From a virus (lineage: Duplodnaviria; Heunggongvirae; Uroviricota; Caudoviricetes): a stretch of 28,739 bases of DNA. Positions 3,001-6,000 of this stretch are shown here, one piece after another. Where the stretch lies: IMG/VR virus record IMGVR_UViG_2698536397_000009; one strand, written 5' to 3'. Numbering within the stretch: position 1 is the first letter of the stretch; each line of letters starts with the position of its first letter. The position numbers are program-made.

Positions 3001-6000
3001 ATACAAGAACCCTAGGCCAGCGAGTTCTGGCGCGACGAAAAGAATTACGCTTAACACAACGAGAAGCTGCGCGCCTCGCTGGAGTTGCTCACGTCACAAT
3101 TTCACAATGGGAAAGAGACGAAACCCAGCCAGTCGGAAAACGATTGTTTGCTTTAGCGGATGCTCTGAAGTGCTCACCTACATGGCTAATGTTTGGTGAC
3201 GAAGACAAGGCACCAGTGCCTGCACAAGAACTTCATGTGGAAACAGAGCTAACTCCCAACCACAAAGAATTGATCGAATTATTCGATGCTCTTCCATCTT
3301 CCGAGCAGGAAGCCTTGCTGTCTGAAATGCGCGCAAGAGTAGAAAACTTCAACAAACTCTTCGAAGAAATGCTTAAAGCGCGTAAAAATAAATCAATAAA
3401 ATAACATTCTTTTCAAGTGATTAGTTGCGCCCACTCTTTTTGTTAGGCTAATCTAACAAAAACACCTGCCTCTCATGTTAGGTTATTCTAAATTACTTTC
3501 CATCAAGACACCGCACGGTGTTCTCAGCAAACAGTTCCGCTACCCCGGCGTTAAGGGGAAATGAGGTCAGCATGGATACTATCGATCTTGGCAACAGCGA
3601 ATCTCTGGTATGTGGCGTGTTCCCCAACCAGGACGGCACGTTCACCGCGATGACGTATACCAAAAGCAAAACGTTTAAAACCGAAAATGGTGCCCGTCGC
3701 TGGCTGGAAAGAAACTCAGGTGAGTGATATGGATTTCGACACAATCATGGAAAAGGCTTACGAAGAATACTTCGAAGGCCTTGCCGAAGGCGAAGAAGCT
3801 CTCAGCTTCAGTGAGTTTAAACAGGCACTCAGAATAAGAATGTGCTCTCACAATGACGCGGAGCACAAATATGAGAAGCAAAATCAGACCGCAGAAAATT
3901 TTGTTCTGGAACCCGGAGAAACGCTTTTCAAAATTCCCGTTACGTGCCCCATTTGCGGTTTTACATCAGAAGAACTTGACGACTCCTGTAACAATCAGGA
4001 AACAACCAAGTATGTCGAAGATGATACCGAGTGCGCACGAAGAACGATTATATCCACGAGTCCAAACTCCAGGGCCAATAAATCTCACTTTGAGAGGATG
4101 ATTAATCCACTCCCCCAAACCAATAAAAAAGATGCCGGAGGACAAAAAACCCAATGGAACAACGGGATATCTGTCAAAAAAAGACGTTCCATTAAAGACA
4201 AACAACGCAGCGCCAACAACTGTAAGCGCTTTATACCAGTAATCAATTTTCATGTTCTTAAGCGGATTTATTGGTGGTTGCGACATTGCTTAATGAATCC
4301 TTAAAACTGTGGTGATTTTAAGGATACCACCTCGCCTGACGTGGTTAAAAGCAGGCACACAACACGAAAGCGCACGGCGAAGTTCGTCTCACTGTACGGT
4401 GTCGTTAAATTTAATTCGACCGTGCGCTTCCGGTTGTGGCAACCCGCAAAATGGCGCGGCGGTAAGTATGGCGGGGTTATTCCTTCCCCGTTGAGGACAC
4501 CGGGTTGTCAGGTTGACCATACGCTTAAGTGACAACCCCGCTGCAACGCCCTCTGTTATCAATTTTCTGGTGACGTTTGGCGGTATCAGTTTTACTCCGT
4601 GACTGCTCTGCCGCCGTTTTTAAAGTGAATTTTGTTATGCGGTGAATGCGGCTAAGCGCACGCGGAACAGTTAAAACCAAAAACAGTGTTATGGGTGGAT
4701 TCTCTGTATCCGACGTTAATTGTTAACTGGTTAACGTCACCTGGAGGCACCAGGCTCTGCATCACAAAATTTATTGTTGAGGACGCGATAATGAAAACGT
4801 TATTACCAAACGTTAATACGTCTGAAGGTTGTTTTGAAATTGGTGTCACTATCAGTAACCCTGTATTTACTGAAGATGCCATTAACAAGAGAAAACAAGA
4901 ACGGGAGCTATTAAATAAAATATGCATTGTTTCAATGCTGGCTCGTTTACGTCTGATGCCAAAAGGATGTGCACAATGAATTCAGCATTTGCGCTTGTTC
5001 TGACAGTTTTTCTTGTTTCCGGAGTGCCAGTTGATATTGCAGTCAGTGTTCACAGGACAATGCAGGAGTGTATGACTGCAGCAACCGAACAGAAAATTCC
5101 CGGTAACTGTTACCCGGTCGATAAAGTTATTAACCAGGATAATATCGAAATCTCGGCAGGTCTTTAAAACAGTTCCGTAATAAATATCCGGTTTCATTCT
5201 TATATGCCAGCAATGGCAGGGATTTGTTCATCCTTAAATCTGTCATGAGGTTAAAACAAAATGAGTAAAGTCTTTATTTGCGCCGCTATTCCTGACGAAC
5301 TGGCAACAAGGGAAGAAGGCGCTGTGGCTGTAGCCACAGCCATTGAAGCTGGCGACGAACGCCGTGCTCGAGCAAAATTTCACTGGCAATTCCTGGAACA
5401 TTATCCGGCTGCTCAGGACTGCGCTTATAAATTTATTGTCTGCGAGGATAAACCTGGCATACCCCGCCCTGCCCTCGATTCATGGGATGCTGAATATATG
5501 CAGGAAAACCGCTGGGATGAGGAGTCTGCTTCTTTTGTCCCGAATGAGACTGAATCCGATCCGATGAACGTCACTTTTGACAAGCTGGCCCCTGAAGTAC
5601 AGAACGCTGTCATGGTTAAGTTCGACACATGTGAAAACATCACCGTTGATATGGTTATTAGCGCACAGGAATTGTTGCAGGAAGACATGGCAACATTCGA
5701 CGGACATATCGTTGAAGCGTTGATGAAAATGCCAGAAGTTAACGCCATGTATCCGGAGCTTAAGTTGCACGCCATTGGGTGGGTTAAGCATAAATGTATT
5801 CCTGGTGCTAAATGGCCCGAAATTCAGGCAGAGATGCGCATCTGGAAAAAACGTCGCGAAGGTGAACGCAAGGAAACCGGAAAATACACGTCTGTTGTTG
5901 ATCTCGCACGCGCCAGAGCCAATCAACAGTACACTGAAAATTCAACAGGAAAAATCAGCCCGGTCATTGCTGCCATTCATCGCGAATACAAGCAGACATG

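Follow-up and report, generated by a model that had tools for sequence, protein, structure and literature searches.

Does the stretch of DNA catalogued as IMG/VR record IMGVR_UViG_2698536397_000009, 28,739 nucleotides (nt) from a virus of the class Caudoviricetes and hereafter called the window, carry an intact dicF-dicB-ydfD module inside a prophage whose exonuclease and integrase genes are uninterrupted, and is this prophage a more complete relative of Qin, the Escherichia coli K-12 prophage at ydfJ/rspB? An original prediction made from the sequence had proposed both. We found that the region from approximately position 2690 to 9419 can be read with high confidence as the immunity-proximal early-left operon and the integration module of a Qin/mEp460-type lambdoid prophage at ydfJ/rspB. 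The arrangement is already known, since it is common in E. coli genomes and phages and has been described in the literature.

The dicF-dicB-ydfD core and the integration arm

The core and the arm that follows it consist of these features, in window coordinates:

4564-4616, + strand: DicF small RNA (sRNA), by Rfam match (72.5 bits), by identity to K-12 at 52 of 53 nt and by predicted fold
4617-4790, + strand: 5' untranslated region (UTR) of dicB, with a weak STnc100-like match at 4628-4768
4791-4979, + strand: dicB, 62 amino acids (aa), Pfam DicB (PF05358, 1.9e-40, profile 1-62 fully covered)
4976-5167, + strand: ydfD, 63 aa, Pfam DUF1482 (PF07358, 6.6e-24)
5261-7732, + strand: exonuclease, 823 aa, the intact form of the K-12 pseudogene ydfE (Pfam, PHROG)
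7805-8056, + strand: excisionase, 83 aa (Pfam DUF1233, 1.6e-31; PHROG 539)
8076-9371, + strand: tyrosine integrase, 431 aa (Pfam Arm-DNA-bind_2, PF12167, and Phage_integrase, PF00589)
9409-9419, no strand: core of the attachment site (att), GAAATCCATAA, on the side of rspB, where prophage and chromosome meet

DicF, DicB and YdfD were all located at or near the places originally proposed for them, by Rfam and Pfam matches and by alignment with K-12. A scan of the whole window with Rfam placed the covariance match to RF00039 at 4565-4616 on the + strand (gathering score 48, E 2e-14), full-length over model positions 1-52 of 52. The sole mismatch with K-12 in the 53-nt alignment is the final base, beyond the terminator stem, and the seed shows no difference. 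Fold prediction returned a single-stranded 5' part, a terminator hairpin at 4579-4615 and a U-run at 4617-4621 (GUUUUU). The DicB protein equals that of K-12 at 62/62 aa, its gene having a single, synonymous nucleotide difference, and the start of ydfD overlaps the dicB stop codon (ATGA, 4976-4979), likewise in K-12. YdfD differs from its K-12 counterpart by V6A, E17V, H53N and P60S, so that 4/4 nucleotide differences are nonsynonymous, with two of the four in the N-terminal half, the half that binds IspG (PMC8835842). It differs by 2 substitutions from YdfD of the isolated phage HannyBb (PP925841). The annotation pipeline PGAP uses separate names for the two ydfD alleles, 'DUF1482 family protein' and 'lysis protein YdfD'. 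PADLOC holds no model for DicB, for YdfD or for a 106-aa membrane protein described below.

Downstream of this core, the uninterrupted exonuclease, xis-like and int genes that had been predicted are indeed present as whole open reading frames (ORFs) with full-length PHROG and Pfam matches. As a refuting test, the exonuclease and integrase frames were compared with functional phage copies, and both are unbroken. The exonuclease spans the profile of PHROG 2082 (1-822/823), carries a C-terminal DnaQ/DEDD-type 3'-5' exonuclease domain at aa 642-813 (Pfam Rv2179c-like, 2.4e-67; PADLOC DEDDh, 1.7e-5) and differs from the HannyBb protein at 4/823 aa. The excisionase is the HannyBb protein with no differences, and the integrase matches that of HannyBb at 430/431 aa; RefSeq starts the latter at 8091, giving 426 aa. 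Alignment with the integrase of Tn1549 (Tn1549 Int) placed an Arg (TGVRPGEL), an Arg-His (SRHT), a His (MGHAD) and the Tyr (QVYGKW). Homology to phages stops at 9424. Since the 11-bp GAAATCCATAA of the window recurs at the two K-12 Qin junctions and in the attP of HannyBb, the element has the same integration system, at the same site, as K-12 Qin. ARAGORN found no tRNA or transfer-messenger RNA (tmRNA) gene anywhere in the window, so the att site is not a tRNA gene, and the RNA leader of DicF, described below, is not tRNA-like by the same program.

How does this arm relate to that of K-12? The original statement that K-12 Qin bears an insertion sequence (IS) and an int remnant here was accurate: the MG1655 annotation lists ydfE as a pseudogene, IS2E as a remnant (706 bp) and intQ as a pseudogene, with IS2E lying between the truncated ydfE and intQ. 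BLAST against K-12 Qin gave two collinear blocks, window 4347-6027 (97.7%), which reaches the IS2E insertion point, and window 8212-12664 (99.3%), which takes up on the far side of IS2E and runs through rspB, rspA and ynfA. The IS disruptions of K-12, named at the outset as the alignment result that would speak against the prediction, were looked for and are absent: the window is continuous over 6028-8211 (2184 bp), where K-12 has its IS2E remnant instead, and the K-12-type ydfE-IS2E-intQ deletion junction is not present in the window. K-12 has thus lost window 6028-8211, and with it the exonuclease C-terminus, xis and the int N-terminus. K-12 Qin dicBF (ydfABC-dicF-dicB-ydfD-ydfE'-IS2E-intQ') shares with the window its chromosomal site, att core, gene order, ydfD overlap, operator half-sites and RNA leader, with shared blocks 97.7-99.3% identical. 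In contrast, the window is without IS2E and retains the 2184 bp lost there, its repressor differs strongly from DicA, another segment stands in for the ydfB C-terminus and ydfC, and YdfD carries its 4 substitutions; judged from sequence, the window operon is not a copy of that of K-12.

The dicBF module and the whole int arm are ordinary, widespread, and already described and annotated. We surveyed 5426 complete E. coli genomes, scoring the arm as present where at least 80% of 3400-9500 was covered in one place, and found this 6.1-kb arm in 1662, many of them 99.6-100% identical, with dicB, ydfD, exonuclease, excisionase and integrase already annotated there by RefSeq. The K-12 ydfE-IS2E-intQ junction was found in 342 genomes, and the core from leader to ydfD (4420-5167) in 3786, where the median genome has it at two places and the richest at ten. 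Among phages, the window from 800 to 9424 is 99.0% identical to the 45-kb HannyBb, whose record lists genes for terminase, head-maturation protease, tail, holin, replication and integration and which also has the segment replacing ydfC. PhiR42_1 (PV340562), mEp460_ev081 (LR597641) and Tritos (OV696610) reach 96-98%. Gene order in these four phages is identical to that of the window from the replication genes through dicF-dicB-ydfD-exo-xis-int-attP, but they are complete phage genomes of 45-49 kb, whereas the window holds one arm, integrated and IS-bearing.

Previous work has described much of this organization. Among lambdoid recombination modules, the class that has a nuclease and no annealing protein takes Tritos as its prototype, and DnaQ-like nucleases have been noted in lambdoid early-left operons (PMC12315714). 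Operons of the dicBF type have been reported from many E. coli strains, in Qin-like and larger prophages (PMC5069750, PMC6832061). The O157:H7 prophages CP-933O/M/P and the PPompW/Stx2a phages have the same order of DicF, DicB, small protein and exonuclease (PMC5069750), but only ~80% identity in the region and other integration sites, and in the copy that we examined, PPompW_132418, the exonuclease is frameshifted. Lambda Kil and Rac KilR are small FtsZ-directed inhibitors at the same operon position, though the proteins are unrelated to DicB, making this an analogy and not a homology.

Whether completeness extends beyond the arm is a separate matter, and here one further feature bears on the answer:

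1-27, no strand: terminal inverted repeat of the IS3 family within the prophage, AGTCTCCAGGATTCCCGGGGCGATTCA, with the window starting inside the repeat

We take this end to be IS629/IS1203-like. The closest complete genome, FHI_NMBU_11, is 99.92% identical over 21.7 kb, the window diverging beyond 21718, and in it a transposase gene of the IS3 family stops 28 nt before the window start, this IS splitting a DUF7380/DUF4209 gene. The C-terminal fragment that remains (86-577) matches the PADLOC defence candidate PDC-S39 (8e-46), and because the IS splits this gene it has inactivated a candidate anti-phage gene inside the prophage. The FHI_NMBU_11 prophage runs from rspB to ydfJ'. Its protease/capsid gene is truncated, remnants of IS30 and IS3 come next, tail-fibre genes lie beyond these, and the prophage lacks genes for head completion and the tail shaft. 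The IS end at 1-27, together with the loss to IS elements, in the closest genome's copy, of everything from the capsid C-terminus through the tail genes, means that inducibility cannot be inferred. A whole prophage that is intact and inducible, in effect a live Qin-like phage, would suit an early-left arm, xis, int and att that are 99% identical to those of an isolated phage, and replication and immunity genes that are uninterrupted in the window, but it is improbable given an IS3-family end inside the prophage, a closest relative without head-completion and tail-shaft genes, and a window that covers only ~9.4 kb of the prophage. The description as a more complete relative of Qin thus stands for the int-proximal arm, which is complete, and not for the prophage as a whole, which is probably still defective. 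The IS elements that the host prophage bears could also be taken as signs of a decaying relic, with the module pseudogenised and devoid of selectable function. We consider this scarcely credible for a module whose frames are all whole, with no frameshifts or stop codons found, whose DicB is invariant relative to K-12, and whose core persists in 3786/5426 genomes, often in several copies.

Control of the operon and the replaced segment

If the arm is intact, how would it be controlled and what would its products do? The features that bear on this question lie upstream of the leader:

2689-2919, - strand: dicC-like Cro-type regulator (RefSeq annotation of a 99.9%-identical locus; ORF list)
2997-3404, + strand: DicA-type repressor, helix-turn-helix (HTH) only, without S24 peptidase domain (Pfam HTH_3, 1.5e-14)
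3441-3458 and 3476-3493, + strand: operator-like sites TGTTAG-N6-CTAACA in the dicB-promoter region
3572-3727, + strand: ydfA (DUF1391), 2 aa different from K-12
3729-3830, + strand: N-terminal part of ydfB, with K-12 homology stopping at 3829/3830
3966-4286, - strand: gene for a 106-aa membrane protein, antisense to the operon (translation; homologs)

A third TGTTAG-N6-CTAACA site lies at 2930-2947, between dicC and dicA, and K-12 has three sites with the same half-sites at equivalent positions; by analogy with DicA and dicBp of K-12 (PMC10448788), all would function as operators. The dicC-like gene is divergent from the repressor gene, and the repressor itself, compared residue by residue with K-12 DicA, shows extensive divergence.

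What we observed are the att site and the parts of the operon, together with the intactness of these parts and how nearly they match K-12 and isolated phages. Expression and activities would follow the course established by experiment in K-12, for which RNase III and RNase E processing of DicF, repression by DicA and the Rem antirepressor have been described (PMC10448788). The repressor, bound at the operators at 3441 and 3476, would keep the operon silent until repression is lifted, as by Rem in K-12, and one transcript would then run through ydfA-ydfB'-leader-DicF-dicB-ydfD-exonuclease-xis-int. From it RNase III and RNase E would cut out DicF, as a ~190-nt form that includes the leader and as a 53-nt form, while part of the transcripts would end at the DicF terminator and the remainder would continue into dicB-ydfD and beyond. 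With Hfq, DicF would pair with the mRNAs of ftsZ, manX, xylR and pykA, its reported targets (PMC5069750). DicB would redirect MinC against FtsZ rings and inhibit ManYZ, so that lambda-like phages could not inject their DNA, in keeping with the block of cell division and of ManYZ-dependent phage DNA entry by K-12 DicB (PMC6832061). YdfD would inhibit IspG and lyse dividing cells unless DicB had halted division, as reported for the K-12 protein, whose lysis is offset by DicB (PMC8835842), and the DnaQ-like exonuclease, Xis and Int would serve phage DNA transactions and excision. The activities of DicF, DicB and YdfD are expected from identity or near-identity with the tested K-12 products. For DicB, the proposed role in cell division and phage entry is well founded to the extent that this protein is, at 62/62 aa, the one tested (PMC6832061); with a DicF that is effectively K-12 DicF, the proposed description as a host-manipulation and exclusion module would likewise hold.

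The operon departs from K-12 most visibly between ydfB and the leader, where a 517-bp segment (3830-4346) replaces the ydfB C-terminus and ydfC; the same segment is found in 796/5426 E. coli genomes and in HannyBb. ORFs on both strands overlap it. The ydfB frame reads on to 4304 as a 205-aa ORF on the + strand (3687-4304), which HannyBb has annotated, and we rejected this ORF as a ydfB read-on shadow of the - strand gene because only the - strand product has distant homologs. The 106-aa protein, with three hydrophobic, transmembrane-like stretches in its translation, has homologs of the same length and 34-58% identity in Yersinia, Herminiimonas, Reinekea and metagenomes, and the 58%-identical homolog occupies the same antisense position beside a CI-like repressor in three other, unrelated prophages. 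Same-length distant homologs and an antisense position conserved in other prophages argue that this is a real gene. The protein has no family match in Pfam, PHROG or PADLOC. Its gene is unannotated in FHI_NMBU_11, its opposite-strand shadow is annotated in HannyBb, and in the other genomes examined for the segment only ydfB, or a 'hypothetical protein' of unstated strand, is annotated there. An antisense position within such an operon is typical of lysogen-expressed genes, e.g., for superinfection exclusion, and a lysogen-expressed membrane function of this kind is our guess from position.

Several points weigh against the reading of this region as an operon and integration module that behave as their K-12 and phage counterparts do. 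Operon expression is extrapolated from K-12, as is control by Rem, and the repressor is strongly diverged from the DicA on which those experiments were made. The convergent membrane-protein gene, standing between promoter and DicF, could reduce or change transcription of the operon. YdfD may differ from its K-12 counterpart in IspG inhibition and lysis because all four of its substitutions are nonsynonymous. Finally, the integrase has a Tyr at the position of the first catalytic His of most tyrosine recombinases (YQSRHT, against HAMRHT in Tn1549 Int), a residue that is very likely the same in the HannyBb integrase, since only 1/431 aa differs between the two.

A structured RNA leader upstream of DicF

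What lies immediately upstream of DicF? A long hairpin at about 4502-4547 had been noted there. The hairpin is present, but its stem (4502-4510/4530-4538) ends at 4538 and not at 4547, and it forms part of a larger structured domain:

4355-4440, + strand: long imperfect stem-loop (-38.3 kcal/mol, z -3.7, 0/200 shuffles as stable)
4436-4544, + strand: conserved structured leader of ~110 nt (109-nt domain), 5' of DicF (covariance model, covariation)
4436-4440/4540-4544, + strand: closing helix of the leader, supported by covariation, outside the model
4444-4448/4455-4459, + strand: leader helix, no covariation support
4461-4463/4499-4501, + strand: leader helix
4472-4476/4486-4490, + strand: leader helix
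4502-4510/4530-4538, + strand: leader helix, the hairpin noted earlier, 9 bp with a possible 4-bp inner stem
4466-4471 with hairpin loop 4517-4522, + strand: leader pseudoknot, supported by covariation, outside the model

A covariance model built from nine sequences matches the window at 4436-4547 with 135.5 bits and finds one copy per phage genome. Covariation was counted on 85 distinct sequences from IMG/VR and GenBank phages, drawn from few deep lineages and aligned by a fit to the other helices. Pairing holds in 96.8% of the cells of this set, where slid controls reach 32-56%, and compensatory changes occur at 9/33 pairs, against 0-5 in the controls; one pseudoknot pair, for example, is UA in 78 sequences, UG in 4 and CG in 3. 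Since neither the pseudoknot nor the closing helix was in the model, support for these two is independent of the alignment method. Selection on the DicF seed had yielded 82 sequences with almost no variation, and diversity was obtained after selecting on the leader loop. The sequence of the hairpin loop hardly changes between E. coli prophages, P1 and an Actinobacillus phage, and in heterologous phages conservation is higher in the region 5' of DicF than in DicF. The leader also occurs in phage cdtI, Stx2c phages, Salmonella phage F1055 and Actinobacillus phage pPE4 (upstream of kil). It has no family in Rfam 15, and a full-text search of one paper collection gave no description of it.

Seen in isolation the hairpin is unexceptional (-14.9 kcal/mol, z -2.2, 5/200 shuffles equally stable), with no U-run after it, and might pass for a chance hairpin or a simple terminator standing by itself. 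Its membership in a 109-nt domain with an outer closing helix and a pseudoknot, the nearly invariant loop and the pairing and compensatory changes counted above make such an explanation very unlikely. The leader instead matches the 5' portion of the 190-nt DicF species known from the literature, which is stable and RNase III-dependent (PMC10448788). The stem-loop at 4355-4440, whose pairs are retained in 82 sequences, is a plausible candidate for the RNase III substrate of the DicF precursor, and we infer a link between it and that species (PMC10448788). In the minimum-free-energy fold of the whole precursor, the 3' half of the DicF terminator is the partner of 4456-4477; covariation speaks for the local leader fold, and we rejected this long-range fold as the structure of the leader. 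The long-range duplex may be the RNase III substrate behind the published 72-nt 3' end.

Comparison with other phages shows how variable the surroundings of the leader are. In P1, the annotated 'dicF-like region' just downstream of Pban has the same leader (model 100.7 bits) followed by an intrinsic terminator, without DicF seed and without dicB; tRNA genes and the ban operon lie downstream, and several of the compensatory changes come from this copy. In Actinobacillus phage pPE4 the gene behind the leader is a kil gene. Across 80/80 distinct loci, a terminator-like hairpin with a T-run stands 46-93 nt 3' of the leader, and the spacer between the two, the seed, varies, being the DicF seed in 45 loci and not in 35. 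The put RNAs of phage HK022, cis-acting antitermination elements, are likewise structured, ~70-110 nt in length, located in the early operon and placed upstream of terminators that need read-through. They differ from the leader in fold and in number, the leader having one copy per genome rather than two, and offer a functional lead only. Membership of the HK022-type put RNAs by sequence was rejected, as the leader model has no match in HK022 24000-32000 (PL/PR) and no second copy per phage genome.

Two readings of the domain remain to be weighed. The leader may be only the 5' scaffold of a modular sRNA composed of domain, variable seed and terminator, serving stability or the RNase III and RNase E processing of the 190-nt DicF with no effect on transcription. 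The published stable, RNase III-dependent 190-nt species (PMC10448788) and a terminator that follows the leader in every locus while the seed varies both fit such a scaffold, though the seed, which the leader would serve, is the less conserved of the two. Alternatively, it may be an undescribed cis-acting element that controls read-through of the following terminator, in the manner of a put RNA or riboswitch; the leader of P1 and cdtI-type phages comes directly after an early promoter and before genes that need terminator read-through, a placement that suits control of transcription equally well. We favour the scaffold, to which we give about an even chance, and regard control of read-through as doubtful.

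Some further observations concern the leader and the region that follows it. A scan of 596 Gb of contigs for distant copies with the 16-base pattern GCGGCGGTAAGNATGGC gave 120 loci, of which two, L137 (from Escherichia albertii) and L225, are genuine and the others chance matches, the pattern being too short. The L137 copy (6768-6950) is a natural DicF variant in which the leader and the first part of the DicF seed are preserved but the terminator hairpin is much shorter (GGCGGAAACGGATATCCGCC). Rfam, run on 4250-4850 at a permissive E-value, returned only DicF and the STnc100 match in the dicB 5' UTR, which at 27.6 bits is sub-threshold (gathering score 47); an equally weak STnc100 match lies upstream of tciA in P1. 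Other phages (Stx, Rac-like) have this UTR region conserved ahead of their kil-type genes, and in the window it holds two small inverted repeats (~4712-4739 and ~4740-4754).

Window flanks and implications

Beyond the att core, the chromosomal gene rspB (9559-10603, - strand) is apparently frameshifted, with overlapping ORFs of 150 and 219 aa in place of 339 aa, and is annotated as frameshifted in the closest genome. A second mobile element, from ~19650 to 28739, interrupts ynfG, of which the first ~84 nt are left. It carries an sRNA-Xcc1 match (20054-20142, 71 bits), antA/antB, traR and ead/Ea22-like genes, ygiW, and a hok/sok locus (sok at 23381-23555, 111.5 bits) that is 91% similar to hokD/sok of Qin. 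A gene for a giant LPD38-domain protein on the - strand runs off the end of the window.

The finding as originally stated matters little; only the RNA leader and the antisense membrane-protein gene could matter more and might justify further study. For Qin itself, the K-12 reference is a derived, deleted version, the full form being commoner in E. coli and present in free phages, and extrapolation from K-12 Qin should keep this deleted state in mind. If the leader did control read-through, it would gate dicB or kil, the exonuclease, xis and int in Qin-, cdtI- and P1-type phages, and DicF would be a processed 3' by-product and not the whole story. The leader would offer a handle on how these phages, which have no annotated N-like antiterminator gene, pass the DicF terminator to reach xis and int.

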